This document shows, one piece after another, positions 5,540 through 30,059 of a stretch of DNA of 64,000 nt (positions within the stretch are counted from its first letter, which is position 1; each line of letters begins with the position of its first letter). A model generated the notes under the pieces. It made no database searches and was not told where the DNA came from. It worked only from the letters and a program-made list of their open reading frames with translations. The DNA is from Dehalococcoidia bacterium. Its GTDB lineage: Bacteria; Chloroflexota; Dehalococcoidia; Lucifugimonadales; UBA3495. The translations under genes and the position numbers were made by a program. Location: contig CBDCEX010000018.1 of the NCBI GenBank assembly GCA_965216025.1, positions 7,808 to 71,807 of the forward strand, written 5' to 3'.

Positions 5540-7015
5540 CTAGCCTGCACGTCTCCATGTGCCATTGGGATCTCGCTCAGGCATGCGGCTAGGATGGCGA
5601 AGCAGCCCCTGAGCGACTTCGGCAAACCACCCAAGCCAACGCTCAATGAAGTCGCTCTCGTCTCCTTGGTCAATCGGGGCGAACGGCCAAGCAACTTGGT
5701 ACTCTCCCATGACGGGAGCAAGCGCGACATAGGCATCCCGGCCGGGGCCTAAAGCAAATGGGTCAAGACGACCTCTTTTGGGAATCAGGGGCATTATCAT
5801 GAACGCCGTCTCGTACCAGCGGAACACTCCGTCCTTTTGGGCATCACAGTACCACAACGAATGAGACCGTCCCTCAAATCCATGTTGGTCAGGTTTGATC
5901 TGGAGCGTGATGCCTGAGTAAGCCACGACTTCAAACGGCGGGCCGTAGGTGTCTGTCTCCAATCGTTGCTCCGCCATCCGGGATGGTGCCACGCTCAGGT
6001 TCGCCTCATTCAAGGACCATGACCATTGCGGAGTCGGGCCGGGTCGTTTGGACGCGGGAGCGTTTGACAGGACTTGATCGTTCATCAGGCTCACAACACG
6101 TGCCAACGACCGATCCGCAGCCTCACACAGTTCGTGCCGGCGCTCAGCCTCTGACTTGGCCACAGACTCTTGCCGAGCTGCTTCTGCTCGCTGCTGCACT
6201 ACAATTGCATTGGCGTGTTGCAGGCGACTTGCCGCTTCGGAGGCTGCCCCGACACTCTCTTGCAGGCGTGCCAACAGGTTCTGGGGTCTCGGTCGTGCTT
6301 CGGGGCCCTTGTAAAGGCACTCGTCTATCAAAGATTGAAGCTTCGGAGGGACACCTGAGATTGATTCTGGAGTCTCTTCTAGGTGCTGCCGTCGGTAGTC
6401 ATGCATTTCGGGGCCTACAAATGGCAATTGCCCGGCAAGCAATTCATAGGCTACGACTCCTATGGCATACACGTCAGTGGCAATGGTAGCTCGATCGCCG
6501 CGCCACTGCTCCGGTGCTGCATAAGGGGGAGTCATAGCGAACTTGCGCGTGTCGGGGGCCGTCGTGGCTTCCGCATATCTAGAGATCCCAAAGTCTGCGA
6601 GACACCACCGCCCGCCCAATAGAAGTATGTTGTCGGGCTTGATGTCCCGATGAACAATTCGGCCCTCCATTGCTGCCAAGGCTTGAGTGACATCAGAGAG
6701 CACCTGGACGGTGTTATCAATAGAGAGGTGTTCAACGTTCTCAGTTAGGTAATCCCTCAGCGACTTATCGGCCTTTGGCATTACAAGAACCCAGAAGTTC
6801 TTCCACTCCCCTCGGTCAAGGATAGGCACAACATTTGGAACTCCGTCCAAGTCTTCGAATAGAATCTCCCGGTCGGCTCCAGGAGCTTTTGGAACGAGCT
6901 TTATGACAGCCGCTTCACCGTCCCCGGCCTGAGCTAGGTAGACGCGTCCAAAGCCGCCTTCACGCAACTGCTCTCCGATATACCATTCTTGGCTTAGGTG
7001 GACAACTTCAGCCAT
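5540..7015 (-). CDS. Hanks-type serine/threonine protein kinase with coiled-coil and uncharacterised C-terminal domain
   Basis: Gly-rich loop GGFGRVY, VIK lysine, HRDIKPDNILL, DFG, and PPYAAPE. The ~200-aa C-terminal region has no motif I recognise. Confidence 0.85.
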   Translation of the reverse strand: MAEVVHLSQEWYIGEQLREGGFGRVYLAQAGDGEAAVIKLVPKAPGADREILFEDLDGVPNVVPILDRGEWKNFWVLVMPKADKSLRDYLTENVEHLSIDNTVQVLSDVTQALAAMEGRIVHRDIKPDNILLLGGRWCLADFGISRYAEATTAPDTRKFAMTPPYAAPEQWRGDRATIATDVYAIGVVAYELLAGQLPFVGPEMHDYRRQHLEETPESISGVPPKLQSLIDECLYKGPEARPRPQNLLARLQESVGAASEAASRLQHANAIVVQQRAEAARQESVAKSEAERRHELCEAADRSLARVVSLMNDQVLSNAPASKRPGPTPQWSWSLNEANLSVAPSRMAEQRLETDTYGPPFEVVAYSGITLQIKPDQHGFEGRSHSLWYCDAQKDGVFRWYETAFMIMPLIPKRGRLDPFALGPGRDAYVALAPVMGEYQVAWPFAPIDQGDESDFIERWLGWFAEVAQGLLRHPSRMPERDPNGTWRRAG

Positions 7016-8428: not shown

Positions 8429-9478
8429 CTAAACCAAAGCCAAGGTGGGAACTACATTTTGCAACGATGGCAAAGGCACGGCAGGTGTAAACATCAATGC
8501 GTCGGCTCTGGCCTGTAACAGGGTTCGGCAGCGATGTCTCACTTCATCGTTACGGTGTGTTAGCCCGTCGAAGAATGCGTTCATCTTCTCTTGGACTTGG
8601 GCTTTTGTTCCCAGGCATTCGTTGGCCGTGACCTCTGCCCTGGCCCAATCCCAGATGGCTTCGTCAGCATTGAAGTCTGGGCTGTAGGCTGGCAAGGCTA
8701 CCAACCTCAGATGCAAGTCAGGAGTGGCCAGATAGCTGCGAATCGCTTCTCCTCGGTGGGCTGGACCATTGTCCCAAATCACTACCAGAAGTCCAGGATG
8801 GTTTTCTCGTAGCTGCTGTAAAAAGGCGGTGGAGGTCTCGGCATTGCTGTTTCCAGCTATTTCCATGGCTTCCACCTCCCCACTCTCCAGACAAACTCCC
8901 GAGTAATAGCAGGCCTTCTCTCCCCACCGGGGACTGGTGGAGTCCACCAAAGCAGGCTGACCTCGCAACACCCATTTCCCCCTCAGGTCGGCATCGGCCC
9001 GAAAGTGGGCTTCGTCCACGAAGAAGATCTTGGCCCCACTCTCTTGGGCCTCCTCTCGGATTTGGCGGTACTGGATAATAAAGGCTTTCCGCTCTTCATC
9101 CTTAGCCTTCAAGAGGCGTTTCTTGGGCCGCTTCAGCACAAAGCCCAGCCGGTGTAGGTAGTTCAAGCAGCTGCTCCGACTGAGCCCCAGATCAAAACTC
9201 CTCTTGAGAAATTGCCTCACTACTTTCCAATTCCAGTTGGACAATTCAATTCCCGCCTCCCCAGGCGGATTTAGCACCGCGGACTTCAGTTGGTCCTGTT
9301 GCCCGGCGTTCAGGGCGGGGGGGGGGAGGACATCCAGTGTGTTCAAAGACCAAACCCTGGGCCCCGGCTCGGCGAAAGTTGGCCAGCCAGTTTCCAATGG
9401 TATGAGGCTCTCTCTCCAAAGCCCCGCAGCAGGTCGCCCAAGGCGTTGTTTGCATTCGGGTTCCGTCTGGCGCGGCAT
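8429..9478 (-). CDS. IS630-family transposase; N-terminal HTH lies in other frames
   Basis: DDE_3 core FFVDEAHF...VIWDNGPAHRG...LPAYSPDFNADEAIW. The HTH part (IGNWLANFRRAGAQGL) is in another frame across a G10 run at 9317-9326. The element is about 8432-9560, with the end aaccaaagccaaggtgg preceded by TA. Confidence 0.85.
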   Translation of the reverse strand: MPRQTEPECKQRLGRPAAGLWRESLIPLETGWPTFAEPGPRVWSLNTLDVLPPPALNAGQQDQLKSAVLNPPGEAGIELSNWNWKVVRQFLKRSFDLGLSRSSCLNYLHRLGFVLKRPKKRLLKAKDEERKAFIIQYRQIREEAQESGAKIFFVDEAHFRADADLRGKWVLRGQPALVDSTSPRWGEKACYYSGVCLESGEVEAMEIAGNSNAETSTAFLQQLRENHPGLLVVIWDNGPAHRGEAIRSYLATPDLHLRLVALPAYSPDFNADEAIWDWARAEVTANECLGTKAQVQEKMNAFFDGLTHRNDEVRHRCRTLLQARADALMFTPAVPLPSLQNVVPTLALV

Positions 9479-9906: not shown

Positions 9907-10188
9907 TCAGTGGTAGTCCACTATCTCGACCTGATAGGCGTTTCCCTCGCTCCAGACAAAGCAGATGCGCCATCGGTCGTTGATACGGATACTGTGCTGC
10001 CCGATTCTTTCTCCCGAAAGAAGCTCCAGCCGGTTCCCCGGAGGCGTTCTCAAGTCATTGATGCTGCTGGCGTTGTTTAGAATCATCAGCTTTCTCTGCG
10101 CCCGGCGCTGAATGTTGTGGGGGAACTTGTTGACCCGGCGACGCTCGGCGACTGCTAGGGTGTCCCTGTCCCGGTAGCTCCGGATCAC
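9907..10188 (-). CDS. higB: HigB/RelE-family toxin (plasmid maintenance system killer)
   Basis: GTG start at 10188 gives MIRSYRDRDT...LRTPPGNRLELLSGERIGQHSIRINDRWRICFVWSEGNAYQVEIVDYH. This is the C-terminal part of ORF 9907..10530. Confidence 0.8.
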   Translation of the reverse strand: MIRSYRDRDTLAVAERRRVNKFPHNIQRRAQRKLMILNNASSINDLRTPPGNRLELLSGERIGQHSIRINDRWRICFVWSEGNAYQVEIVDYH

Positions 10189-10281: not shown

Positions 10282-12075
10282 GTGACTATTCCCCGTTACT
10301 CGGTAAACCAGTACCAAGTCGATACCCTCCTGACTTGGATAAAGACCGACCACCTTGCTATCCCCGAGATTCAGCGTCCCTTCGTCTGGAACGGTGCAAA
10401 GGTGCGGGATTTCATCGATTCCCTGTACAGGGGTTATCCCGTTGGGTATCTCATCGCCTGGCAAAATCCTGCCGTTCGGCTGAAGGATGGGACTCTTTCC
10501 GCAGGCAAGCGCATCTTGATCGACGGCCAACAGCGGGTAACTGCCCTGCTGACCGCCTTGCTTGGGAACCAGGTGATAACCAGAGACTATAGGCGAGCGC
10601 GTATCTCAATAGCCTTTCATCCCGGAGAGGAACGTTTCGAGGTGACGAATGCTGCTATCCAGCGGGATAGGGGATGGATTACGGATATTGCAAGCGTCTT
10701 TGCACCGGAAGCCTGGATGACCAAGATTGTAGAGGAGTACTGCGACGCAAATCCCGATTATTCCAAACGCGAAATTGACGAGCGTATGCGAAAACTTTCC
10801 GGAATCCGGCAGAATACCCTCGGTCTCATCGAGTTGAACGCCGAACTAGATGTCGATGCGGTCGCAGAGATATTCGTGCGCATCAACTCCCAGGGCGTAA
10901 CCTTGAATGAGGCGGACTTTGCAATGTCCAAGATGGCCGCCAGTGAACAGTACGACGGGCACTTGCTACGAAAGTGCGTCGACTACTTCTGCCATCTGGC
11001 AGTAGCTCCTGAGGCATATGGCGACCTTGCTCGAGATCATGACTTTGTCTCGACAGACTACTTTCGCGCCATGGAGTGGCTGAAAGACGAAAAGGATGAC
11101 CTCTACAACCCCTCATACGTTGACATGCTTCGCGTGGCATTCATATCGAAGTTCAAGCGCGGGCGCATGGCAGACTTGGTCGCTCTACTATCAGGCCGCA
11201 ATTTCGCTGCACGCACGTTTGAAGAGAGCATAGCGGAGGAGTCTTTCAAGAAGCTCGACGGCGGCATCCGGAGCTTTATGAATGAAACCAACTTCAAACG
11301 GTTCGTCATGGTCCTGCGTTCCGCAGGGTTCGTGGATTCATCGCTGATCAGGTCTCAGAACACCGTCAATTTCGCCTACGTCCTCTTCTTGACACTTCGC
11401 GCACAAGGGGAGTCACCACAGCTGATCGAGACGCTGGTGCGCCGGTGGTTCGTGATGTCAGTCCTGACGAGTAGATACACCAACTCGCCGGAAACAGCCT
11501 TTGGTGTCGATATTGCGAACCTCGATAGTCATGGTGCAGCAAAGTATCTCGACAGCATTGAACGAGCGGACCTATCGGACGCCTTTTGGGGAGTGGGATT
11601 GCCACAGCAGATGGACACCTCGGTGGCCAGTAGCCCCTATTTCAACGTCTTTCTCGCAAGTCAGGTTAAGGCGAACAACAAGGGGTTCCTGTCGCGCGAC
11701 CTTACCGTGCGCGATCTTCTTGAAGGCCAGTGGAATGTGCACCATGTTTTTCCGAGAAGTTATTTGCAAAAAAATGGCCTCCAGCGTGGCCGCTACAATC
11801 AGATTGCCAACTATGTAATCATGCAGAGCGAGATCAACATCGCAATCGGGGCGCAGCCGCCCGCAACCTACTTTTCCAACCTGCTGGAGCAATGCAGAAC
11901 CGGAGTGACTCGCTACGGAGGAATAATCGATTCCGACCAATTGCAGGAGAATCTTGCTGTTCACTGCATCCCTGGCGGCATGGAATCGGCAAGCGTCGAA
12001 GGTTACGATGAGTTTCTCCAGGAACGTAGGAAACTGATGGCAACCAAGATAAGAAGATACTACAGCACGCTGTGA
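10282..12075 (+). CDS. GmrSD-like DUF262/DUF1524 protein (type IV restriction-type nuclease)
   Basis: N-terminal DUF262 motifs IPEIQRPFVW and DGQQRVTAL. C-terminal DUF1524 His-Me motif HHVFPRS...NYVIMQSEINIAIG. GGAGGAG RBS before the GTG start. Confidence 0.8.
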   Translation: MTIPRYSVNQYQVDTLLTWIKTDHLAIPEIQRPFVWNGAKVRDFIDSLYRGYPVGYLIAWQNPAVRLKDGTLSAGKRILIDGQQRVTALLTALLGNQVITRDYRRARISIAFHPGEERFEVTNAAIQRDRGWITDIASVFAPEAWMTKIVEEYCDANPDYSKREIDERMRKLSGIRQNTLGLIELNAELDVDAVAEIFVRINSQGVTLNEADFAMSKMAASEQYDGHLLRKCVDYFCHLAVAPEAYGDLARDHDFVSTDYFRAMEWLKDEKDDLYNPSYVDMLRVAFISKFKRGRMADLVALLSGRNFAARTFEESIAEESFKKLDGGIRSFMNETNFKRFVMVLRSAGFVDSSLIRSQNTVNFAYVLFLTLRAQGESPQLIETLVRRWFVMSVLTSRYTNSPETAFGVDIANLDSHGAAKYLDSIERADLSDAFWGVGLPQQMDTSVASSPYFNVFLASQVKANNKGFLSRDLTVRDLLEGQWNVHHVFPRSYLQKNGLQRGRYNQIANYVIMQSEINIAIGAQPPATYFSNLLEQCRTGVTRYGGIIDSDQLQENLAVHCIPGGMESASVEGYDEFLQERRKLMATKIRRYYSTL

Positions 12076-12225: not shown

Positions 12226-12903
12226 ATGGATGCCAGGTTGAGGGGCCACTCAGAGAGCATAGGTCAACGGATGGAACGGGACCTGGAGGCCCTGCTGCCT
12301 CTGCCCGAGGCACCCTATGACGCCTGCGAGAAGCAGGCGGGCCGGGTGAGTTCGCTGTCACTGGTCCGGTACAGGACCAACGATTACTCGACGCCGGTGG
12401 TCTACGGGCACCGAGCCGTTCTGGTAAAAGGCTACGTGGACCGGGTGGTCATCAGTTGCGGGTCCGAGGTCATCGCCCGCCATCACCGCTCCTACCAGCG
12501 GGATGATTTTGTGTTCGACCCCGTCCACTACCTGCCCCTGCTCGAGCAGAAGACGGCGGCCCTGGACCAGGCCGCTCCCCTCCGGGGATGGGATATTCCC
12601 GAGGAGTTTGCCACGCTGCGGCGCCTGCTGGAGTCCCGCATGGGACGAAGGGGCAAGCGGGAGTTCGTCCAGGTGCTCCGGCTATTCGAGCATTTTTCGC
12701 CTGGGGAGGTCCACGCCGCGGTTCGGGATGCCCTCCGGCTGGGGGCTTTGAGCTTCGACGCGGTGAAGCATCTGGTGCTCTGCCGGCTGGAGGGCCGGCC
12801 GCCCCGCCTCGACCTGGAACTCTATCCCTACCTGCCCCGGGTACGGGTCAGCATCACTTCCGCCGGGGATTACATGACATTGCTGTCGGGGAGGGCGGCA
12901 TGA
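12226..12903 (+). pseudogene. istA: IS21 IstA transposase, C-terminal fragment
   Basis: SFEALNAHLERRCLARMDARLRGH...LVRYRTNDYSTPV...FVFDPVHYLPLLEQKTAALDQAAPL matches IstA C-termini. The HTH and DDE parts are absent. Confidence 0.8.
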
Positions 12904-13455
12904 ACAGCCGGTCCACGCTGCTGCTGGAACACCATCTGAAGGAACTGAAGCTGCCCAGCTTCTTCCGGGAATACGGGAAGATGGCGGCCCAGTGCGCCGC
13001 CGAGGGAGTGGACCACCCCCAGTACCTGCTCAGGCTCGCCGAGTTGGAACTCATTGATCGCCACCAGCGCATGGTGGAGCGGCGGATCCGGTCCGCCCGC
13101 TTCCCCGCCGTCAAGACCTTCGACACCTTCGACTTTACGGCCATCCCGTCGGTGAACAAGGCGCTGGTGATGGAACTGGCACGTTGCGAATACGTACAGC
13201 GCCGGGAGAATATCATCGCCGTCGGCAACAGCGGCACCGGCAAGACCCACATCGCCCTGGGACTGGGCCTGGCCGCCTGCCAGCGCGGGATGTCGGTGGG
13301 CTTCACCACCGCCGCCGCCCTGGTCCACGAGCTGATGGAGGCCCGGGATGAAAGACGCCTGCTCAACCTCCAGAGACAACTTTCCCGCCTCAGCCTGCTG
13401 ATCATCGACGAGTTGGGCTTCGTCCCCCTGTCCCCCACCGGGGCGGAACTGCTCT
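12900..13455 (+). pseudogene. istB: IS21 IstB helper ATPase, 3'-truncated
   Basis: ATG at 12900 overlaps the istA stop. LKLPSF..., Walker A GNSGTGKTH, and Walker B LLIIDELGF. Homology ends after PTGAELLF. Confidence 0.8.
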
Positions 13456-13916
13456 TCGCCCATCTTTGGCACATGGACGTGGCCAAGCGCTTGTGCCAGG
13501 CCGATCCCGGATTGTTCCAAGCTACCAGGCATCAGGTAGTAGACCTCAACGCCCCGGACGAGCTTGAGGCCATACGCTGGTGGGACGAACTGACGGGCAA
13601 GGGCGGAGAGGGTATGGTAGTGAAGCCTATGGACTTTATCGCCACCGGGAAGCGGGGCATGGTGCAGCCCGCCATGAAGTGCCGGGGCCCCGAGTACCTG
13701 CGCATCATCTACGGGCCGGAGTACACTCTGCGGGAGAACATAGAACGCCTGCGGAATCGCGGCCTCTCCACGAAGCGGTCGCTGGCACTTCGGGAGTTTG
13801 CATTGGGTGTAGAAGGGCTCAGGCGTTTTGTCGAGGGAGAGCCTCTCTACCGGGTACATGAGTGCGCCTTCGCTGTGCTTGCCCTGGAAAGCGAGCCGGT
13901 TGACTCCAGGCTATGA
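13456..13916 (+). pseudogene. pnkp: C-terminal fragment of a polynucleotide kinase-phosphatase (Pnkp) ligase-like domain, fused in frame to truncated istB
   Basis: GEGMVVKP...KCRGPEYLRIIYGPEYT...RSLALREFALGVEGLRRFVEGEPLYRVHECAFAVLALESEPVDSRL matches my recollection of bacterial Pnkp C-termini. No Hen1 gene follows. Confidence 0.55.
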
Positions 13917-15342: not shown

Positions 15343-16803
15343 TCAAGGAATAACCAATGCGCTGGTTCCGCGTTCGCCCAGGGACCGGTACTCTTGGAAT
15401 TCATCGTTTTTCCCGTCCCTGAAGTGGCTCCTCACTTCCCACGCCCAACCCAATCTCATTCCGAACATTTGCGAGCATCTCTCGATTACGTTTCGCGGTG
15501 CTGTCAGAACCCATCCGGTAGCTGGTGGAAGTCCCATGATGGACGTAGCGGATAGACCGTCCGACCAGTCACTCCATGTGGCTATGAGCCCATCCGCGCT
15601 CTCATAGTCTACGGAATATTGGCGGCAAACCGCGTGGATCCGCTGATTAGATAGAGCATCTGATGGGCATTGGATTTCCCTAATGCCTCGCCAAGCTTGC
15701 CACGACATCAATGCCACCGGATGCGCCGTGCCTGAACACGAGAATATTGACCAGTCACCAATCTGTGCGAACCTGTTGTCGACTGAAACCACGCCTTCAA
15801 ACCGCAGAGGAGATGCCCGCTGATTTACCCTAGCGCGACTCCGGCGAATGGCGTCCAACACCTCTTCAGTGCTGGGCCGTAGTGGTCCGTTGGCTTGCTG
15901 GAAAAAGGAACGAACCTCCAAGTCGTGTTGCGTTTGGCCGGACTGAAAAATGCATCCGCTCGCTGCAATGACCACCTTCGTGCGTGAGTCCCATGCATTC
16001 GCCGCATCATTCGCTTTTTGGATAGCGGCGGCAATTTGGGTGTCTATTGAGTCTGGATCCCCCTCTGTTTCTAGGTTCGGCCACCATTCCGGCTTGGCAG
16101 CAGATTTGACCTGCCATAAACCTAAATCGACGGGGGAGACGAAGGCGGCCATGTGCTGTATTAGCTCCCCTGGAATGCCGTGGATTGATTCGGCCGACGC
16201 GAGAGTACGCAGGTAAGCGGATGCCGTAATCTCGTCTGACCGTGTGTACCAGCCGGGATGAAAACCTTCCTGGAGTGTCCCTGCGAGTCTTGAGGCGCGG
16301 GTCGGCGACTCGCCGTGCAACTCGCGCAGTTTCGCGCGTTCAAACTCGAACTGTCGGGTAAGGGACGAATGGAAATCGTTATCATATAGCCTTAGAGTCT
16401 GTACCAAGCCTTGTCGTAATCCTCTTGCTGTCGTCTCGCGATCTTCGTCAGGAGGGTGCCAATGTGCTGGCGGCAAGCCGAAGTACCGTGCCGAAGTCGT
16501 GGCATCGGCATACGATGGATCGTAGTGGCTCATAAACAGATCAGACAGTACCGACCTCGCACGACATGTCTCGGCCAACTCCTGCGTGTCTACCGGCAGT
16601 ACATTTGTCAACTCCTTCACTCTCAGGAAAGGGAGGATGCCCGTACAGGCTCGGCTCTCAAGTTCTTGGCGGCCTATCCATGCCAGAAGCGCTTTGCAAA
16701 CACCCTGACGTCCTTCGCCGATAAGTTCCGCAATTTGAGCCGCCGTCCGTTCTCGGACCAAAGCGGCCGGCCAACGCAGGCGGTCCACCAACAGATCTAT
16801 CAT
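15343..16803 (-). CDS. hypothetical protein, translationally coupled partner of the STAND NTPase
   Basis: 486-aa ORF whose ATG overlaps the upstream stop (ATGA at 16800-16803). Balanced coding-like composition. No motif recognised. Confidence 0.7.
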   Translation of the reverse strand: MIDLLVDRLRWPAALVRERTAAQIAELIGEGRQGVCKALLAWIGRQELESRACTGILPFLRVKELTNVLPVDTQELAETCRARSVLSDLFMSHYDPSYADATTSARYFGLPPAHWHPPDEDRETTARGLRQGLVQTLRLYDNDFHSSLTRQFEFERAKLRELHGESPTRASRLAGTLQEGFHPGWYTRSDEITASAYLRTLASAESIHGIPGELIQHMAAFVSPVDLGLWQVKSAAKPEWWPNLETEGDPDSIDTQIAAAIQKANDAANAWDSRTKVVIAASGCIFQSGQTQHDLEVRSFFQQANGPLRPSTEEVLDAIRRSRARVNQRASPLRFEGVVSVDNRFAQIGDWSIFSCSGTAHPVALMSWQAWRGIREIQCPSDALSNQRIHAVCRQYSVDYESADGLIATWSDWSDGLSATSIMGLPPATGWVLTAPRNVIERCSQMFGMRLGWAWEVRSHFRDGKNDEFQEYRSLGERGTSALVIP

Positions 16804-19800
16804 TGGTCTTCCCTATCCGGGACGATCCATGAAGGCATCGCCAGTAGTTGGCCATTCGTCAATCCAACCACTGTGTCGACGAGTTGCCGTGCGACGGCGC
16901 ACGAGTCTTCCCAATGGTCGAAGTACCCCAGGTATTCGGCCAAACGAGCCACCGTCATACCGAAGTGCCAAGAGAAGCCGGCGTCCGGTGGGAACGAGGC
17001 AATAAGAAATTCTTGCCAACGGTTGGGAAAATCATGCTTCAGCCAACACCACCGTTCTCTAGCTTCCCCAATGTCCGTCCAATGCTCGTACCACCCACGG
17101 TTAGACCGGTTTGCTTTTACCAGCCAACCAAAACTTTGAGTCCTGCCGACGATTTGTTTCACGGCAATGACTGCATCGTTACTGATCCGGAGCTGGTTGT
17201 CATCTAGCAAGTAGGGTCGTACAGCCTCCACCGCATCCCTGGCACGATCGGTTTCGGACCACCAGCACAGCCACGTGCATAGTGACTCGGACAACCTGTA
17301 TGGGACGTCGCCGCCCTCTCGTTGGATAAACTCACCGAGATCTTCTGGCGGGTACTTCAGACACTTTTCTCGGCTGATGCCATCTCTCATCGTCCAGCTG
17401 TGAGTATCCTCCTCGGAAGAACTGCGCATCGAACGTTCCACGTTCCCTAGTGAAAGCTTTGATGAGTACCGCGGCGTGAGCGCTACGACCTCTGCTGCTG
17501 GTTCGTATGATTGCCCGGCCCTTCGCTCGAGGAGTTCGATGGCGTCAGGGTCTATACAGGTGCTCACTAGAGCCCTAACATCCTGGTCGGTCAGGTTTCC
17601 GGTCGACACCAATTCTTTAAGCACCTGTTGGATGTCCGAGTATTGCTCGTTGTCCATCAGGAAGGTCAGGTAAGCGACTGCGAGGCCGGGGTCCAAGTGG
17701 AATATCCGGCTGCCGAGCTTGGAGGCTAGGTGGTTCGTCTCATCCCCGTCGGTGAACTCTCGCACTGCTCCAATTACGGGAGCCAGTCGGGCCCAGACCG
17801 TTCGCCTTGAATCCAAATGTTCACCGACGACCTCTATTACGTTCAGCGCGGTATCGAGGAGAATATCCTTGTGATAGCCGTAGGCGAGAAGGTTTTCGGA
17901 TGCTTGACGAAGATAGTCGAGCGCTCTCGCTGGCTGCTGGCGCCGAGCACAGATTGTGGCCAGCATTGCCAACGCGGCCGCCCGGTCACCGAACGGTTCG
18001 GTTGTGGTGGCAAATTCGTCGTCAAGCAGATCGCAAATCTTGATGGTCACTTCGTCGTCGACGGCAAGTGTGCCCTCGGCAATCCACTCGATCATGGGCC
18101 GTGAACCAGCAAATGGGTGGGATATTAACGATTGCACCTCCTCCCAGCTCAGCGTGGAACTACCACCGGTGGCACGCCGGGAGACCAGAAGATCCTCGGA
18201 GATTGTGCACAGTGCCCTCTTGAGTCCGTCAGCGCACTGGTAGTCGGCGAGTGGCGTTCGGAAAGGTGGAAAATCGAGGGAGTGGGTCGCGTCGTAGCCA
18301 GCGGTTACGGCGACTGTACCATTTAGGCGCCACTGTGCAACTATTTCCTCAGTGCCCAGCGCCAAGGATTCTAGACTAGATTTCAACCACGTTCGCATGT
18401 CTGCTGGCGCGGGCCATTGCTTGGCTTGGCCTGGGGACTGGAGTTCTTGGACCAACCAACAGAAGAACAGGTCGTGTACGTAATGCCCGACGTCCTGTTT
18501 ATACTCGTCGATGGCGAGCCTCCATTCGTCAACTGGAGGATCAGGGTTTGCTGGGACTGGCACGGCTGCATTCGGGTCTCGGAGTATCTGGTATACGGAA
18601 GGGTAAGGTGACACCATGGATTTGGTTTCCGCCTCGTCCAAGCGTATATCCTCGGAAATGCTGTCTACCGCGAGGTATCTTGACAGACACCGCTTGGATA
18701 AAGGTGCTGTTGGCCCCCTGAGCGCTTCGATCGCTGACTGTCTCCTGCCGGAATATCGCAGACCCCCTATCCAAGAGTCGACCAAAGAGGCCTGTGCAGT
18801 CTCCGAGGGAAGCTGGTTGATGAACTCTATGAACGACCTTGAGTCGTACCCGATCAAGCCTGCCAGTTCCGACAGGATCCCTGGCCGGTCCCTGTTTCCT
18901 TCCGATGTCTGAAAATTGTCCGATTCCCAATTGAGCCGACGACGTATTTGGTCGAAGCAATTCCCAGTATCGAATGAATTGCCTATTCCGTAGGAATAAA
19001 TCCCTAATGACGCAACTGCAGAATCGTTGAGTTCGGACAACCGCGTAATCTCTCGGGCGGCCAGTGCTTCTCGGCCTTCCATGGAAAGTTGCGCTTCGAA
19101 CATCCATCGCAAGGCATCGTACTGAATGGGAACCGTATGCTCCACGACGTCTGCCAAAATCCCGCGGTCTACGTATTTCGGGAAATCCTGGGCCTTGATG
19201 GACTCGTAAGCAGCCTCTTGCAGCATATTTGCAATTTCTGTCAATGAATCGCCGGCGGCAATGGCTTCGACCACCCACTGGCGGTCGGTGCCTTCCATGA
19301 GTGGTTTTGGGTCTCCCGCTTCGCGTTGCAGCAGCCACAAATTCGACCTGCGGAGGTAGGCCGGAGCCTTCTCTTCGAGCCACCTGATGGCGGCCTTCCG
19401 CAGTGCATCCCGACGCGACTCGAACTCGGGTTGTTCGAGGGCGAAGAGGAGTACGCTGTTGTGAAATGGCTGCCAGCCTATTCGGTTGTTCCATAACAGG
19501 TGCTGGACGGCGTCTACGCCGGCCGCACCGGTGGCCTGGTCGTACCCGGCTATTCGAAGGGTTTCGTGCAGGCCACTCAAGGGCCAATTAAACCTCGCGA
19601 TTGCAAGAAGGAACATCACGTCCCTAGCGTGTAGAGGGAGGTCGGCCCACAACGACCGGTAGTACTCCTCTACAGAGCTCGCTGGAGGTTCGGGAATCGC
19701 TTCAACTTCAGACGAGGTTAGATACTTACCTGCTCCCGCTATTCTTTCCACGATGTACCGAATCAGAAGGGGATGCCCCCCGGTGCGTTCGTGCAAGCTC

Positions 19801-21194
19801 TCAGCCAATTGAACGAGGTGCCATTCTTGGTTGCCCGCGAGCCACGTCGATGGCATCAGGTTATGGTGATGGTCGAGCCATTCCTTGATCGCTAACTTGT
19901 CCAGTGGTGGAAGCACAATCCAGCTGTTTCTCGGCGCGTACTTGATGAGGGATGCCGGGAGCTGTTTGTCCTGTACCGGTTGGGTGCCCACCACCAGGAC
20001 AATGCCTGGAGGTGCGGGTAGCAACTGGTCGAAGAGCTTGGTCAATTCATCCCGGGAGTCCTTGGCCCGCCAAACGTGATCGAGGCCGTCTACCACTATG
20101 ACCAAATGTTTACTCTCTGCTGACAGCCTTTCACCGATCTCTTCGAGCCAAATCCGAAGGTCCTGGGCAGGGTTTGGGTTCTGGGTGTCCAGCGCGGATA
20201 GATAAGGTCGCAGTTCAATTTGTAGGTCGGCCATGAGTGATTCGGCGATTCTGTGAGATTCCACTCTTTCCAAACGGTCCCGGCCGGGACCTAAAGAGTA
20301 ATGGTGTCTCACGACGTGGCAATCTGATTGGTGAAGTGAATTAACCAGATAACTGAGATACGTGCTTTTTCCTATACCTGGGCCTGCCGTCAAGACGATG
20401 ACGGGGTCGTTGCCGTCTATAACCCGCTGAAGTAAATCTTGATGACAATCTTTGTCCGCGAGTACGTAATCCGCCGGAACCTCCAGATCTTGGTTCAGCG
20501 GCGACAGTTGGGTCCATCCACAAGCGAGCCGGAGGTTCGAGATCCGGAGCTCGCCGTTTGGCGGGAGGTTTTCACACCTGATCCATGACCTAATTGCATC
20601 CATGAAACCCAGCCAGTTCGTCTCCGGCAGCCCCAGAGATTGGAAGTCTCGCTGCAGTCGTTCTTTCAGGTCGGTTAGTCCTTGCTCGGTGATCTCAAAG
20701 CAGAATCGCTCGATGAAATCATCCGCATCGTCCCCTAATATCGCCGTTATTTGATTCAAGACGTCGGGGCTGGTCTTGTCGACATCGATCCGTCCGGTGG
20801 CGGTAAGGAACAGGTCGTCACCAGCCTTGCGGTTGGAGAACAATCTAGGCTCGGTTCTGCCGTACTCCTGGTCAAGGGCCATGACAGAATCCCACCACTG
20901 TTGAATCAGCGTTGGGCTCTTTCCTTGGTTGCCACCGCGCAGCAGAGTCTTCCAAGTCAACGGATCGCCAGCCCGCAAGACGTCTGTGGAAAATTTCACC
21001 TGGGTCGCTTCCACAGTACCATCGATCCGGAGGACGACTACATCGTCCAGTTTACCGGCCTCTCGCGCCTCCAGCTTGATCCATTGATAAAGCGATGGAT
21101 TCTTCAGGAAGGTCAACATCGTTTTGGCGGCAACTAAATCTTGGTAATCGTCGCCGGACCTTCGCGTCGCTGTCCTGGTTCTACTCAGTGCCAT
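16800..21194 (-). CDS. STAND-class P-loop NTPase with N-terminal Cap4/DUF4297-like PD-(D/E)xK nuclease domain and long helical C-terminal region (Avs-like)
   Basis: N-terminus SGDDYQDLVA...KLDDVVVLRIDGTVEATQVKFS (a D...QxK pattern). Walker A LTAGPGIGKST (nt 20362-20391). Walker B HLVIVVDGLDHVW. About 1000 aa of helical-repeat-like sequence follows. Confidence 0.8.
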   Translation of the reverse strand: MALSRTRTATRRSGDDYQDLVAAKTMLTFLKNPSLYQWIKLEAREAGKLDDVVVLRIDGTVEATQVKFSTDVLRAGDPLTWKTLLRGGNQGKSPTLIQQWWDSVMALDQEYGRTEPRLFSNRKAGDDLFLTATGRIDVDKTSPDVLNQITAILGDDADDFIERFCFEITEQGLTDLKERLQRDFQSLGLPETNWLGFMDAIRSWIRCENLPPNGELRISNLRLACGWTQLSPLNQDLEVPADYVLADKDCHQDLLQRVIDGNDPVIVLTAGPGIGKSTYLSYLVNSLHQSDCHVVRHHYSLGPGRDRLERVESHRIAESLMADLQIELRPYLSALDTQNPNPAQDLRIWLEEIGERLSAESKHLVIVVDGLDHVWRAKDSRDELTKLFDQLLPAPPGIVLVVGTQPVQDKQLPASLIKYAPRNSWIVLPPLDKLAIKEWLDHHHNLMPSTWLAGNQEWHLVQLAESLHERTGGHPLLIRYIVERIAGAGKYLTSSEVEAIPEPPASSVEEYYRSLWADLPLHARDVMFLLAIARFNWPLSGLHETLRIAGYDQATGAAGVDAVQHLLWNNRIGWQPFHNSVLLFALEQPEFESRRDALRKAAIRWLEEKAPAYLRRSNLWLLQREAGDPKPLMEGTDRQWVVEAIAAGDSLTEIANMLQEAAYESIKAQDFPKYVDRGILADVVEHTVPIQYDALRWMFEAQLSMEGREALAAREITRLSELNDSAVASLGIYSYGIGNSFDTGNCFDQIRRRLNWESDNFQTSEGNRDRPGILSELAGLIGYDSRSFIEFINQLPSETAQASLVDSWIGGLRYSGRRQSAIEALRGPTAPLSKRCLSRYLAVDSISEDIRLDEAETKSMVSPYPSVYQILRDPNAAVPVPANPDPPVDEWRLAIDEYKQDVGHYVHDLFFCWLVQELQSPGQAKQWPAPADMRTWLKSSLESLALGTEEIVAQWRLNGTVAVTAGYDATHSLDFPPFRTPLADYQCADGLKRALCTISEDLLVSRRATGGSSTLSWEEVQSLISHPFAGSRPMIEWIAEGTLAVDDEVTIKICDLLDDEFATTTEPFGDRAAALAMLATICARRQQPARALDYLRQASENLLAYGYHKDILLDTALNVIEVVGEHLDSRRTVWARLAPVIGAVREFTDGDETNHLASKLGSRIFHLDPGLAVAYLTFLMDNEQYSDIQQVLKELVSTGNLTDQDVRALVSTCIDPDAIELLERRAGQSYEPAAEVVALTPRYSSKLSLGNVERSMRSSSEEDTHSWTMRDGISREKCLKYPPEDLGEFIQREGGDVPYRLSESLCTWLCWWSETDRARDAVEAVRPYLLDDNQLRISNDAVIAVKQIVGRTQSFGWLVKANRSNRGWYEHWTDIGEARERWCWLKHDFPNRWQEFLIASFPPDAGFSWHFGMTVARLAEYLGYFDHWEDSCAVARQLVDTVVGLTNGQLLAMPSWIVPDREDQ

Positions 21195-22288: not shown

Positions 22289-23221
22289 CTAGCCAGGTGC
22301 CAGCCGAAGCCGGCTGATCCGTTCTAGTATCCCGGTCAGCATTTCCCTGGTTACCAGCACCTCGGCAAGCTGAAACACCAGCCTCCTTGCGTGGCGTACC
22401 AGTCGCCCACCCGTCTTGATCAGCCTGGTCTGAAGACTGGTCAGAGTCCAGTGCTTCATATCCTCCGGCAACACCAGCCTTCTCATAAAGTTGCCCAGGT
22501 TGTAAGTCAGGACGAACAGCCATAGTCTCACCTGGTTGGCCACGAACTTGTGGCAGGAAAGCCGGGTCCAGTTCAGGGCGTACTTGCCCTCCTTGATCCA
22601 CTGCTCCGCCGTGCCACGGCCATTGTAAAAGCGGACTATTCCTTTGGGTGGATAGCTCAGGTTGGTCACGATGAAACCAACCCTGGGAAATAGCTCCCCC
22701 TGATGCCACTCTACTTTAGCCACCACTCGCCTGGGCAAGTGCCAACTCTGGGCCTGATAGGCAAAGTCATGGTAGGAGACGATAGGCTCCCGGGATGGCC
22801 ATTCGGTAGGACGCTCCAGCAAGGGTTGGATCTGCTCCTGAATTACCTGATTGGCGGGAAGCCGGATGGCGTACCCGATCTTTCCTTGTTCCAGATACTC
22901 GTATAGCTCCGGCTTGGCAAAAGCAGCGTCACCCCGGAACAGCAACCGCAGTCCTTTCTTCTGGTATCCTTTCACCACCGGCTCAAGGAGTTCCTGCCAG
23001 CCATCGGCACTATGCACGTTTCCGGGTCGTAGCGTCGCTCCTTCGCAATCCCCAAACTGGTTGAACAGAAAGAGGGGATGATAGCAGACACACTCGAAGT
23101 GCCCGTTGTAGGCGGCTCCTTCCTGCTGACCATGCACTGGACTCTCCGAACTGTCCATGTCCAGAATCACTCGCCGGTGTGGAGTGTGAGCCATGGCCAG
23201 CTCCACCCACTGGGGATTCAT
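22289..23221 (-). pseudogene. IS1380-family transposase, C-terminal part (separated from its N-terminal part by a MITE)
   Basis: VILDMDSSESPVHGQQEGAAYNGHFECVCYHPLF...FRGDAAFA...YNGRGTAEQWIKEGK is typical of IS1380 DDE transposases. Confidence 0.8.
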
Positions 23222-23816: not shown

Positions 23817-24209
23817 CGGGTGCCTCCAATGTCGGTACGCAAGTTATCTGAAATAGCCAACTTATTGCATGTATTATATCTGAAATACGGCTAAGAGATT
23901 CATGTAACGACTAGAAAAGCAAGAAAGTTGCCTATTTACCGCATCACTTGTTTGAGCCAAATGGGGAATACGGGCTTTAACTTCTTCCGGCAGCGCGGTG
24001 TTCATTATGGCTTCTTTCAATTTTGGAGATATTTCTCTTCGGAACCTACGCCGGGGGATAACTTCAGAAGCACCCTTGGCAGAAGACCAGCATTTTTCAG
24101 TCCATCCGACCTCCCGAAGAACCCCCGGTCGACCATGCCCGTCGTGACAAACAATGGGGTGCAAGTTCCAGTCCACAATATGGGCACCACATTTTTGAGG
24201 AGGTGTCCC

Positions 24210-25541
24210 ATGACGGACAACCCGAAGGAATATCCCTATCCCATCGGTCCGTTGGCGGAGTCGTTCCCACCGTTGTCCCCGGCGCGGCATGCCGCCCTGG
24301 TGGTCCGGATTGCCCAGCATAGTTTCCGTCCTGCCGTCATCGTCTGGAGGGAGGAGATCATTTTCGGAGTGGCACTCCTGAAGGCCTACAAAGAGGCTGG
24401 CGTGGAGCCCCGGTTCGAACAATTGGCCGACGATGCGGACCCGACCGAGGCTCTTGCCGCAGCGGCTATTCCTTTCCTGGAAATGGACAACAACGCGCGG
24501 GGGCGGGCAGCCTGGATGGCCTCAGAGTGGTCCACCCGGGGGAGGCCCCGGGATGAGGACCAAAATTCTGCAAATTTGCAGAATAAAACCCGGGCCGCCA
24601 TGGCCGAACGGTTCGGAGTAAGCGTCAGGCTCATCAACTATTTCGCCCAGGTCCTGTCAGAGAACAGCAAGGCCGTGCCGGCGTTGCAGCAGGCGGTGAG
24701 GGAGTGGAAGATCAAGGGGACGGACGCCGCCCGGGTGATATCCCGCCCGGCCGTGGTGCAGGAGAGGGCGGTGGAGCTGGTGATGAGCAAGGAAGTCCGG
24801 ACCGTCAGCCGGGCGGTGGAGCGGGTTGAGCGGGAGATGGCCGAGGCGGTGGAGGCGGCGGTCCTGGCGGACATGCTGGCGCAGCCATTGGATGAGACCA
24901 TGACCCTGCACGTGGCGCAGATCGCCGACATACTCCGGCTGGTCCCGGCCAACACCGTCGACGCCATCATCACCCATCCTCCTCAGGCCGAGGACAAGCT
25001 GTTCATGTACTCCGACCTGGCGGCTCTCGCAGCCCACGCCCTGAAGCCCTCCGGCTTCATGGCAGTGCTGGGTAACGGCATGCTTCTGCCCCGGATGCTG
25101 GCGCATCTGGAGCACGAGGGGATCAGGTGGATTATGGAGCAGGACGTCCTCTCCCAGGGGCCGCCGGATCGTTCCGGGCGCCCGTACTTCCTGGGCCTCC
25201 GCCGCAAGCCCCTGCTCGTCTACGGCAAGCCCGCCTTCCAGCCCGCCGGTGGGGACGACCTGATCACAGTTCCCCCGCCGGAGGAGTTGCCCGCAGGCCT
25301 CGACCGGAACGAGACCACCATGGACTTGATCGTCAAGAAGTTGTGCCGGTCCGGACAGACGGTCTGCGACCCGATAATGCTGGATCGGGCCGGCACGGCG
25401 CTGGGGGCGAGGAAGCAGGGCTGCACCTTCATCGGCGCCACGGAGCATCAGTCCTCTCGGGACCGCATCCGGAAGCGGATGATGGAAGCAGAAGTAGGCT
25501 GCGGTGGACAATCCGAAACCGGTTCACCCAGCGAAGGATGA
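24210..25541 (+). CDS. ParB-like N-terminal domain / beta-class DNA methyltransferase-like protein with degenerate catalytic motifs
   Basis: ATG at 24210 is preceded by GAGGAGG. The ParB-like segment is SPARHAALVVRIAQHSFRPAVIVW. Motif IV position reads DAIITHPPQ (expected DPPY). Motif I position reads DPIMLDRAGTALGARKQGCTFIGATEH (expected DPFxGSGTT...GRxxIGxE). Confidence 0.65.
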   Translation: MTDNPKEYPYPIGPLAESFPPLSPARHAALVVRIAQHSFRPAVIVWREEIIFGVALLKAYKEAGVEPRFEQLADDADPTEALAAAAIPFLEMDNNARGRAAWMASEWSTRGRPRDEDQNSANLQNKTRAAMAERFGVSVRLINYFAQVLSENSKAVPALQQAVREWKIKGTDAARVISRPAVVQERAVELVMSKEVRTVSRAVERVEREMAEAVEAAVLADMLAQPLDETMTLHVAQIADILRLVPANTVDAIITHPPQAEDKLFMYSDLAALAAHALKPSGFMAVLGNGMLLPRMLAHLEHEGIRWIMEQDVLSQGPPDRSGRPYFLGLRRKPLLVYGKPAFQPAGGDDLITVPPPEELPAGLDRNETTMDLIVKKLCRSGQTVCDPIMLDRAGTALGARKQGCTFIGATEHQSSRDRIRKRMMEAEVGCGGQSETGSPSEG

Positions 25542-26506: not shown

Positions 26507-26953
26507 CTAGTCAGTCCCCATCCCCAAGAGGCATTGGGCAGCGAAGACCGCCCCGGCTATAGCGAGGGCAAGGGGATAGTAGAGGTACACTGACGGGGAC
26601 CGCAGGCACTTCATCAATATGCCGATGGAGAAATCCACTGGAACAATTTGATAGACGTCTCCTAGCCCGTAAGTACCACTCCGTAGCTTCTCTAGCATGC
26701 ACTCATACGAGCCTCTGAATCGTCGCTCAAGGGATAAATAGTAGACGTCCAGTAGGAAGAACAGGGACAGCGGCACCAGGGCAATCAACGTGTACCACGG
26801 GACTCCGGTTCTAGCGGCTAAGAACAGCACGGCGGATAACGCCGTAATGCTCCACAATTTACAGGAACGGCTGTTCTCCGCCATGCGCTGGATAACTCCC
26901 TGCAACATCTCCAGATGGGACTGGACGGCGGATGCCCCGGCGGCAAAAGTCAC
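26507..26953 (-). CDS. small 3-TM membrane protein (SLATT/PycTM-like candidate effector)
   Basis: N-terminal amphipathic helix, then TM segments LWSITALSAVLFLAA, WYTLIALVPLSLFFLLDVYYL and VYLYYPLALAIAGAVFAAQCLL. The start overlaps the upstream stop by 4 nt. Confidence 0.65.
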   Translation of the reverse strand: MTFAAGASAVQSHLEMLQGVIQRMAENSRSCKLWSITALSAVLFLAARTGVPWYTLIALVPLSLFFLLDVYYLSLERRFRGSYECMLEKLRSGTYGLGDVYQIVPVDFSIGILMKCLRSPSVYLYYPLALAIAGAVFAAQCLLGMGTD

Positions 26954-27684
26954 AACAGGCCAACTTCGCCAAGTTCTCTTTGTAAGATCGACCGCCAGTT
27001 AGCTAACGGTTCCGTTATTAGGCTGGAGTAATCAGACGGCATCTCCACCTTGTCCTCCTTTAGCACACACACCAACTTCGGATCCCTGTCGAGTACCCGG
27101 CCCATCTCTATCATTGCATTGGGACGGGGGCGGAACACGCCCGTCGTTAGCTCCTCGTCGGCGGTAAGCACCACAATATAATAGTCCGCCTCGTTAATGG
27201 TGCTGCTCACCTTGTCGTTAACGAAGCGACCAGAATTGGGGAGATCAGCCGCCTTGTAAGCATCCACGCCGTGCTCAAAGCACCAGATCCGGATATCCTC
27301 CACGACTTGAGGCACGCGCCCCTCGCTACTACCGTGGATCACCATTATCATAGGTCGGGACTGCCGTATCTGATTGCCGCTGGGTTCGGCCTCATTGGCA
27401 ACTGATGAGTTCCATGCGTCTAGAGCCGTCCTGCCATCCTCGGTTAGGTCGAAGGCATAAATACCCTCGGACGACCAGGTGTTAGTGACGTCTGAGAACC
27501 CTCTGCTAGATCGAATCCAACCCATGTAGGACAACGTTATAGCGTCGGTGTGCTCCTGACCATTGAAGTCCAGCGTTCTAGACATCAATGTCATCAGGTC
27601 GGGGATAGATTCTCCCGCTTCCCGCGCAGCCAACTTACCAAGCAGTTCCATCAAGCGTCGTTCCTGTTCCTTACCCATCGACAT
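26950..27684 (-). CDS. protein with unknown N-terminal domain and C-terminal Cap12/PycTIR-type TIR-like domain
   Basis: The C-terminal half has IMVIHGSSEG, YYIVVLTADEEL, RPNAMIEMG and VCVLKEDKVEMPSDYS. This matches the COG4271 TIR-like nucleotide-binding family pattern (vFIVHGhd...LLTpDD...aRqNVifElG). Confidence 0.7.
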   Translation of the reverse strand: MSMGKEQERRLMELLGKLAAREAGESIPDLMTLMSRTLDFNGQEHTDAITLSYMGWIRSSRGFSDVTNTWSSEGIYAFDLTEDGRTALDAWNSSVANEAEPSGNQIRQSRPMIMVIHGSSEGRVPQVVEDIRIWCFEHGVDAYKAADLPNSGRFVNDKVSSTINEADYYIVVLTADEELTTGVFRPRPNAMIEMGRVLDRDPKLVCVLKEDKVEMPSDYSSLITEPLANWRSILQRELGEVGLL

Positions 27685-27720
27685 ATGACGGCCTCCAGTT
27701 TTCCCCGCAGCATCGGTATT

Positions 27721-28245
27721 CTACTGACGGCGATTCTTTATGGCATCTTCGACCCATCCCTCAAGGTGGTCCTTGATATAGCCGTACACGTCCTTGCTGT
27801 CCGTGTAGGGAGAGTCGTAAGCAACCACACGTTGGTTTAGAGTCTGACCGTTCTGTACTTGAACGCTCGCGAAGGGATTAGTGCCCTTGCTGGAAGATTT
27901 GCTGTCTTGGTTCAGGAGCCTGTAAATATAGATGCCCAATAGCCCCTTCTTGTCGTTCCATGCTTTCCTAATCTCATAGTCTACCCACTTTCGGCCCGCC
28001 GTCTGCGAGCCAATTAGGACTATTACGCAAGATCGGGTGCTCATCTGCTCATTGATCCATTTCTGGATAGCGGCATCGCCGCCACGCTTAACTTCCTCCC
28101 ACGCATTGCTCGAAACGGGCTCGTCGTGCTCGGTAACGCCGATGTTGCGGACTTGCCCGGCTCTCCAAGCATCATTGTCAAAGTGGAAGCTGTAGAATGT
28201 CCGTCTCTTGGGGTGATTGGTAGTCAATTCATTCTCCTTGTTCAC
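27721..28245 (-). CDS. thsB: ThsB-type TIR domain protein (Thoeris ThsB / DUF1863 family)
   Basis: RRTFYSFHFDNDAWRAGQVRN, SCVIVLIGSQTAGRKWVDYEIRKA and KGTNPF align by eye with Bacillus ThsB along most of its length, including the conserved Glu. Confidence 0.85.
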   Translation of the reverse strand: MNKENELTTNHPKRRTFYSFHFDNDAWRAGQVRNIGVTEHDEPVSSNAWEEVKRGGDAAIQKWINEQMSTRSCVIVLIGSQTAGRKWVDYEIRKAWNDKKGLLGIYIYRLLNQDSKSSSKGTNPFASVQVQNGQTLNQRVVAYDSPYTDSKDVYGYIKDHLEGWVEDAIKNRRQ

Positions 28246-29468: not shown

Positions 29469-30059
29469 TCACAGGTTGATGAGCGGACCCTGACCGATCA
29501 CAGCTAGAATCCGGTTCTTTAATCTCTCTCGCAAATCTTGATGAGTTTCCCAGTCTATGTGGCTGTAATGGGAAGTGTCGAAGTGCAAGGTTTTCATTGA
29601 CTTCTTGGCGCACATGAATATGACGGGGATGTTGAGCCCGTGGGCGAATCCAGCTTCGTAGTAGACGCTGCCCCTAGCCCCGTCAGTTCCATGGGTAAAG
29701 TCGGCAACCAAAAATCTGGATTTCCGAATTTCGGCTATGATTTCATCTTCGATCCTATTGATGTGATCCTTCCGGTTGAGTATTAGGGGTTTGAATCCAG
29801 CGTCTTTGATCCCTAGCTCTATCCCATGCTCGTAAACTTCAGTCATGCTGTCGTGGAACCACATCGCTACGAAGGCTTGGGTTAAGTCGGTATTGGCTGC
29901 TTGGTCGGCGATATGTGCATGCCCCGCTACTGTGACGTACACGTTCCCTTGGCCGCCCGACATGAAATCACCGGTTATCCAACCCCTTTCTCTTAGAACC
30001 TGTTTACGATCTCTGAAATATGATAAGTTGAGACGATTACCGGAGGGAGGGGTAATCAT
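29469..30059 (-). pseudogene. C-terminal half of a wH-like / nucleoside 2-deoxyribosyltransferase(TIR)-fold protein split by IS5
   Basis: AFVAMWFHDSM...IIAEIRKSRFLVADFTHG...SVYYEAGFAHGLNIPVIFMC fits the NDT/TIR-like Rossmannoid pattern. The apparent N-terminus (MITPPSG) is read out of the IS5 end. Confidence 0.6.

Follow-up and report, generated by a model that had tools for sequence, protein, structure and literature searches.

What do two overlapping genes of a Dehalococcoidia bacterium encode, and what is the second of them, for which no annotation could be found? The stretch of DNA analysed here (64,000 nucleotides of contig CBDCEX010000018.1, in the following the window) carries on its minus strand an open reading frame (ORF) of 1464 amino acids at 16800-21194 and, following it, an ORF of 486 amino acids at 15343-16803. 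An earlier note, made from the sequence alone, had described the two as a candidate antiviral STAND system, in which a nuclease-NTPase-sensor protein was coupled to a partner of unknown fold, possibly as a new variant, and had suggested that the partner was an accessory sensor, an inhibitor or a second effector. The analysis described below led us to the view that the pair is probably one split STAND receptor of the Avs1/Avs3 type, with the partner as the C-terminus of its sensor. On this view it is a known immune receptor in two-gene form, and no new type of immune system is revealed. What the analysis established is which domains are present, that the pair is conserved, that natural fusions occur, that the junction is collinear and that the fold matches SeAvs3.

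The large protein and the gene junction

The ORF list and the translations contained the two overlapping ORFs exactly as first described. Read on the minus strand, the junction is gaccaATGAtag, where the TGA stop codon of the large gene and the ATG of the partner share the tetranucleotide ATGA (16800-16803), and a purine-rich AGGGAAG stands a few bases upstream of the overlap. A scan for sigma-70 promoters gave no match, a result that is uninformative for a Chloroflexota genome.

The Avs-like tripartite layout that had been proposed for the large protein was confirmed, the nuclease and the STAND NTPase by profile searches (libraries PADLOC 2.0.0, NCBIfam 20 and Pfam) and the helical sensor by an AlphaFold2 model. 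In PADLOC the N-terminus matched SAVED_PDDEXK (E 2.3e-15) and Effector endonuclease (4.7e-13), both over residues 5-126, as well as LmuA (1.4e-7, residues 10-205). These matches comprise only the nuclease part of the profiled proteins; PF14130 is recorded on several homologues of the large protein. The NTPase scored above the Pfam cut-offs for AAA_16 (41.4 bits, cut-off 32.6) and NPHP3_N (37 bits, cut-off 24.8) and just under the cut-off for NACHT. Its sole match to an Avs family was Avs1b (PADLOC 3.2e-18, NCBIfam 5.9e-16), restricted to residues 240-570, and no other Avs model of PADLOC or NCBIfam, Avs3 included, matched the large protein at E ≤ 1. The sensor part (residues 573-1464, 892 amino acids) was modelled entirely as helices, with a predicted local distance difference test score (pLDDT) of 85.6 and a predicted template-modelling score (pTM) of 0.85. 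All nuclease motifs and both Walker motifs (A and B) quoted in the earlier note were found in the translation: SGDDYQD (residues 13-19), LDDVVV (49-54), QVKFS (65-69), GPGIGKST (271-278) and VVDGLDH (367-373) all lie where an alignment of 33 family sequences shows conservation of at least 90%. More than 480 homologues of the large protein were collected, most of them approximately 1450-1500 amino acids long and aligned over 98-100% of the query.

The pair displays the features of the Avs superfamily, namely a STAND NTPase, an N-terminal effector domain, a TPR-like sensor of at least 400 amino acids and a context of defence genes and mobile elements. Many STAND clades are unrelated to defence (PMC13581612), and a signalling protein of another kind, for example a regulator, might be imagined here too. 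This explanation was rejected: the Cap4-type nuclease effector, the location in a defence island with mobile elements and the Avs3-like fold (see below) speak against it, and we consider it extremely unlikely.

The nuclease domain is homologous to the DUF4297-type PD-(D/E)xK nuclease domains of Cap4 (CBASS) and LmuA (Lamassu). Unlike in those systems, there is no SAVED domain, adjacent cyclase or LmuB/SMC partner, and the nuclease is combined with a STAND NTPase. The likeness to Avs1 is also partial. Canonical Avs1b is a trypsin-like protease, which activates the upstream metallo-beta-lactamase (MBL)-fold pro-nuclease Avs1a (PMC12799240). The pair likewise has an NTPase matching Avs1b, but its effector is the fused Cap4 nuclease and it has no trypsin-like N-terminus. 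No conserved upstream gene in the position of Avs1a was found in the relatives, and in the window only a transposase remnant lies upstream.

A protein of the Leptospira interrogans plasmid pGui1 (L021:3567-9458; annotated as "ATP-binding protein") was tried as a reference for canonical Avs1b. It turned out to be a single-chain Cap4-nuclease STAND protein of 1963 amino acids and was uninformative in this respect. Its NTPase is distantly related to that of the window protein, its C-terminus has no hhalign similarity to the partner family, and it possibly belongs to a different Avs family.

Conservation of the pair and natural fusions

The 486-amino-acid partner had been said to contain no motif that could be placed, and in this respect the description held: it had no match in Pfam, PADLOC, NCBIfam or the PDB sequences, and the PDB-sequence search was still empty when profiles of 28 and of 77 sequences were used. 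Weak matches to the TRIM21 B-box (E ~0.1), apart from which there were none, were taken as chance. A word-indexed search returned 72 clusters of homologues with 26-100% identity, the full-length ones being approximately 470-510 amino acids long and none containing a Pfam domain. Exhaustive profile search of a representative library placed 638 clusters (at 50% identity, E ≤ 1e-3) in the family, among them standalone proteins of approximately 500 amino acids and C-terminally fused forms of 1916-2006 amino acids. The AlphaFold2 model of the partner (pLDDT 87.5, pTM 0.87) is helical between residues 1 and 270 and rich in beta-strands between 276 and 478; no significant match to it was found in the viral fold library BFVD.

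One of the distant homologues is encoded by the Klebsiella pneumoniae plasmid pE16KP0218-1 (CP052287.1; L016:11386-12828), and its whole length aligns with the partner family (hhalign probability 99.8%, E 2e-27, 462 columns). In GenBank/RefSeq this protein and the homologue from a Cupriavidus metallidurans plasmid (NZ_CP026546.1; L017:11455-12831) are labelled "multidrug DMT transporter permease". Because the partner is modelled as a soluble alpha+beta fold, the name looks like a propagated misannotation.

The earlier note had made its interpretation depend on whether homologues of the partner are conserved beside STAND genes, and this was found to be so in all Chloroflexota loci that a genome scan returned and in replicons of other groups. 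A scan of one genome per species yielded 11 loci, all in Chloroflexota/Dehalococcoidia metagenome-assembled genomes (MAGs), and in 11 of 11 a homologue of the large gene was located immediately upstream. The 4-base overlap was identical in 10 of them (the large gene ends at 10004 and the partner match starts at 10001, in locus coordinates), despite the fact that the partners sharing it are only 41-87% identical to that of the window; the eleventh locus, L010, is disrupted. More distant large homologues (24-30% identity) were also followed by an adjoining or overlapping gene, which codes for 466-520 amino acids without a Pfam domain; such pairs were seen on the Klebsiella and Cupriavidus plasmids, in Paenibacillus and in four contigs from metagenomes or MAGs. 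No close copy of the Klebsiella version was detected in E. coli genomes. Upstream of the pair no conserved third gene was found, therefore the conserved unit consists of exactly two genes, and it extends across at least four phyla and onto plasmids.

Decayed copies were also encountered. In the Dehalococcoidia MAG contig CBDANP010000006.1 (L010) the large gene is in two pieces of 781 and 711 amino acids and the partner is reduced to 389 amino acids, with an ORF of 443 amino acids on the opposite strand just upstream of the truncated partner. In a Pyrinomonadaceae MAG (L014:10366-11895) the partner was called at 300 amino acids only, after a gap of 627 nucleotides.

The large-protein homologues include chains of 1969-2014 amino acids, whose extra C-terminal approximately 490 residues are the partner. 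Protein P0139, for example, carries the partner sequence ...LLSRLKWPSPIVRERAGD... in its C-terminal extension, and in the exhaustive search the partner profile covered the last ~485 residues of the fused forms. The fused chains that were scanned all had the same Cap4 nuclease, and the Avs1b-like NTPase match was present in 4 out of 5. Among 164 full-length partner domains 125 were standalone and 27 fused, the remaining 12 being probably fragments; fusion accounts for roughly 15-20% of the relatives and a separate partner gene for about 80%. On a neighbour-joining tree of the partner domains the fused and split states were interspersed, which by parsimony requires at least 17 changes. Alignment across the junction was collinear: the large protein has a C-terminal ...P.W... 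motif, after which come a variable linker of a few residues (at most ~10) and the partner helix L..LL.RL.WPS..VRERA, and the stop and start codons of the window pair are located exactly in the variable linker between these conserved motifs. Since the fusions are in frame and the junction is collinear, the partner is, judged from the alignments, a module of the same protein as the large chain and not a separate accessory.

These data bear on two other explanations. If the 486-amino-acid protein were an independent accessory acting outside the sensor, such as an inhibitor or antitoxin-like regulator, a second effector or an adaptor, its occurrence as a separate gene in ~80% of the family and its lack of a recognizable domain would be accounted for. 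However, in-frame fusions recur at the same collinear junction, the fold of the partner matches part of the single-chain Avs3 receptor (see below), and there were neither catalytic motifs or family matches suggesting an enzyme nor viral homologues. An independent inhibitor or effector was rejected on these grounds, and we regard an accessory of any of these kinds as decidedly improbable. The statement that the partner has an unknown fold and the pair is a new variant is not supported in the form in which it was made, in view of the in-frame fusions in many relatives and the SeAvs3 fold match; of the three roles that had been guessed, "accessory sensor" came closest.

The other explanation holds that the two ORFs are a single gene of ~1950 codons, broken by a frameshift into a pseudogene or divided through an error of assembly. 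Fused versions do exist, L010 is disrupted and the partner of L014 has only 300 amino acids. Nevertheless, in every one of the 125 split clusters the partner begins with a start codon of its own and its N-terminus is conserved, the same 4-base overlap was retained between the diverged Chloroflexota partners (see above), finished replicons of Klebsiella and Paenibacillus contain split pairs too, and both ORFs of the window retain every family-invariant residue. We have rejected the pseudogene explanation, whose probability appears to be minimal.

Fold comparison and a model of the split receptor

When the model of the partner was compared with the PDB using Foldseek, the only significant target was 8dgc, the complex of SeAvs3 with terminase, two chains of which were matched with E values of 4.8e-8 and 5.7e-8 (probability 1.0, TMq 0.49-0.50, 544-547 columns), all other targets having E > 0.06. 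With this match the fold of the partner, a protein conserved beside the STAND gene and without a profile match as first stated, can no longer be called unknown. The sensor part of the large protein (573-1464) had the same structure as its sole significant PDB match (E 2.3e-6, probability 1.0, TMq 0.54, 981 columns), followed by generic helical-repeat proteins with E ~1e-2 and TMq below 0.2. The summed length of the parts (572 + 892 + 486 = 1950 residues) comes close to that of the SeAvs3 chains (2004-2028 residues).

SeAvs3 (AVAST type 3) resembles the pair in having an N-terminal Cap4-like nuclease, a STAND NTPase and a large sensor that is helical and ends in a beta-rich C-terminal part, as well as in its total length of about 1950-2000 amino acids, and the same mechanism (target binding, tetramerization, nuclease activation) would be expected for both. 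SeAvs3 is, however, one polypeptide, whereas in the window the last ~486 residues are encoded by a separate, translationally coupled gene; it is the fused relatives (1916-2014 amino acids) that share the single ~2000-amino-acid layout. Between the sequences of SeAvs3 and of the pair no similarity was detectable. Because none appeared even with family profiles, the relationship to Avs3 is, at the sequence level, a remote one.

Avs1, Avs2 and Avs3 sense the phage large terminase, Avs1 is reported to be structurally similar to Avs3, and the literature already mentions a split-TPR variant of Avs1 with a divided sensor (PMC13601566). The catalogue of defence STAND families comprises at least 90, and tetramerization of Cap4 has been described in SeAvs3 and SeAvs7 (PMC13581612, Lee et al. 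2026). SeAvs7 has, like the pair, a Cap4 nuclease and a STAND NTPase; it has a bilobed TPR sensor and its tetramer assembles the nuclease (PMC13581612). It differs from the pair in its sensor and in its target, the major capsid protein with EF-Tu as cofactor, and it gave no significant structural match in our comparison.

In the split receptor that we consider probable, the 1464-amino-acid chain would supply the effector (Cap4-like nuclease), the STAND NTPase as oligomerization switch and the greater part of the helical sensor, and the 486-amino-acid chain would supply the end of the sensor, consisting of a helical subdomain and the beta-rich C-terminal domain. On the analogy of SeAvs3, Avs1 and Avs7 we predict that the chains associate non-covalently and rebuild the full sensor pocket, their amounts being held near equimolar by the ATGA overlap. 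The rebuilt sensor would bind a conserved phage protein, upon which the ATP-bound NTPase domains would tetramerize and bring together the Cap4 nuclease domains; the assembled nuclease would then cut double-stranded DNA indiscriminately and abort the infection. The large terminase subunit is the leading candidate for the bound protein, and by analogy with the Avs families named above we put its chance of being the trigger at about one half.

It is conceivable, but in our opinion rather less probable, that the receptor is split as described and its sensor has diverged to recognize a different phage protein, such as portal, capsid or a replication protein. The absence of sequence similarity of the sensor to Avs1b or Avs3 and TM-scores of only ~0.5 would agree with such a divergence, and Avs families with TPR-like sensors are known to recognize at least 14 different core phage proteins (PMC13581612). 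On the other hand, each of the two sensor halves matched SeAvs3 significantly and none of the other solved structures, and the beta-rich C-terminal sensor common to Avs2 and Avs3 binds the terminase ATPase (PMC13601566).

Several observations weigh against assigning the pair to a split receptor of the Avs1/Avs3 type. Outside the NTPase, profile searches revealed no sequence-level tie to Avs1b or Avs3, and PDB-sequence searches with the large-protein profile, the partner profiles or a fused homologue did not return Avs3. The NCBIfam equivalog model for Avs1b (NF041810) gave 56.9 bits, compared with a cut-off of 1500. The Foldseek TM-scores are moderate (~0.5) with root-mean-square deviations of 10-11 Å, and it is the fusions and the beta-rich domain that lead us to equate the partner with the C-terminus of SeAvs3, the aligned SeAvs3 residues not being reported by the Foldseek tool. 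The architecture of the pair fits the split-TPR Avs1 variant in a comparison that was made by description only and does not confirm that the two are the same family. Upx, which was sought to tie the family to that variant, was not found beside the related loci examined, where the large neighbouring ORFs were HKD-Snf2, a type I restriction enzyme, a type III methyltransferase, UvrD-like helicases and mad3. Finally, association of the chains, the trigger and protection against phages are predictions by analogy.

Genomic setting and meaning of the split

The window is a defence island interrupted by insertion sequence (IS) elements (Table 1), and the neighbourhood of IS remnants and defence genes that the earlier note had described was borne out. 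The GmrSD_N/HEC-05-like restriction candidate and the Ser/Thr kinase flank the locus, with IS transposases (3658-4797 and 8429-9478) among them. Its "lower-GC patch" is marginal: at 55.6% the G+C content of the gene pair is below that of the window (58.6%) but no lower than that of the whole surrounding stretch between 14 and 32 kb (55.9%). Related loci in other genomes adjoin type I and type III restriction-modification, GmrSD, OLD nuclease, CBASS, HKD-Snf2 and MADS genes, integrases and toxin-antitoxin genes.

Some other ORFs of the window deserve mention. Candidate defence genes of the TIR type cluster at 26507-28245 on the minus strand, and a further one is located at 29469-30059 on the same strand. 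In the ORF at 12588-13916 (plus strand), directly behind the IS21 IstA C-terminal fragment, an IstB_IS21 ATPase (residues 116-291) is joined to the C-terminal portion of a PNKP ligase domain (291-437). It looks like a chimeric ORF or like the end of an IS21 element abutting what is left of an RNA-repair gene of the PNKP/Hen1 type. An ORF of 537 amino acids at 23928-25541 (plus strand), with no Pfam or PADLOC match and overlapped by an ORF of 284 amino acids on the opposite strand, could be spurious or else a gene of the island that has escaped annotation. An ORF of 2294 amino acids at 56985-63869 (minus strand), in a stretch of high G+C content (63-68%), had no PADLOC match.

Table 1. Features of the gene pair and of its surroundings (positions in the window)
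Feature	Position	Strand	Basis or remark
Partner gene, 486 aa; probable detached C-terminal sensor module	15343-16803	-	Homologues, fusions, junction alignment
Partner beta-strand-rich C-terminal half (residues 276-478)	15370-15978	-	Modelled secondary structure
Partner N-terminal helical domain (residues 1-270), opening with conserved LLxRLxWPSxxVRERA helix	15994-16803	-	AlphaFold2, conservation, collinearity with fused proteins
ATGA stop/start overlap; translational coupling	16800-16803	-	Sequence
Large gene, 1464 aa; Cap4-like nuclease, STAND NTPase and N-terminal bulk of helical sensor	16800-21194	-	ORF, profiles, homologues
All-helical TPR-like sensor, N-terminal part (residues 573-1464)	16803-19478	-	AlphaFold2, Foldseek
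STAND NTPase module (residues ~243-571)	19482-20468	-	Pfam, PADLOC, NCBIfam
Walker B VVDGLDH	20076-20096	-	Within STAND NTPase module
Walker A GPGIGKST	20361-20384	-	Within STAND NTPase module
Cap4/DUF4297/LmuA-like PD-(D/E)xK nuclease domain (residues ~5-205; motifs DDYQD, LDD, QVK)	20580-21182	-	PADLOC, PF14130 in homologues
IS transposase	3658-4797		IS element
Ser/Thr protein kinase resembling PD-T4-6/mad6	5540-7015	-	Defence candidate
DDE_3 transposase	8429-9478	-	IS element
GmrSD_N/HEC-05-like type IV restriction candidate	10282-12075	+	Defence gene
IS21 IstA C-terminal fragment and IstB	12226-13916	+	IS element; IstA ORF 12226-12903
Truncated DDE_Tnp_1_4	22289-23221	-	IS element
PDC-M50A	26507-26953	-	Defence gene candidate
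CAP12/Pycsar-TIR-like protein matching PDC-S35	26950-27684	-	TIR-like defence candidate
ThsB-like/PDC-M50B	27721-28245	-	E 6.5e-71
TIR effector-like ORF	29469-30059	-	Defence candidate

The split itself could be functional rather than neutral, the free 486-amino-acid chain serving as a separately dosed, exchangeable sensor subunit, which captures the phage protein first and then docks, or which sets the threshold of activation. We think this unlikely. If it were true, the pair would be a genuine two-component NLR-like receptor of prokaryotes, loosely similar to sensor/helper NLR pairs, and the repeated fission and fusion (at least 17 events) would reflect selection on it.

The split-sensor form is widespread, a form of this kind (the split-TPR Avs1 variant) is on record in the literature, and the window pair is a new member of it from the Chloroflexota. 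It is still of interest, because the split form is uncharacterized, fission and fusion are recurrent, and the partner is missed or mislabelled in annotation. An unannotated family of at least 638 clusters at 50% identity, which PADLOC 2.0.0, NCBIfam 20 and Pfam miss, is hereby explained: the best reading makes it the C-terminal module of the sensor in a Cap4-STAND receptor that is widespread and has an Avs3-related fold and an Avs1-related NTPase. This helps the annotation of defence islands in Chloroflexota, in Bacillota and on plasmids of Pseudomonadota, and the naturally split and fused pairs are useful for studying how Avs sensors are assembled.

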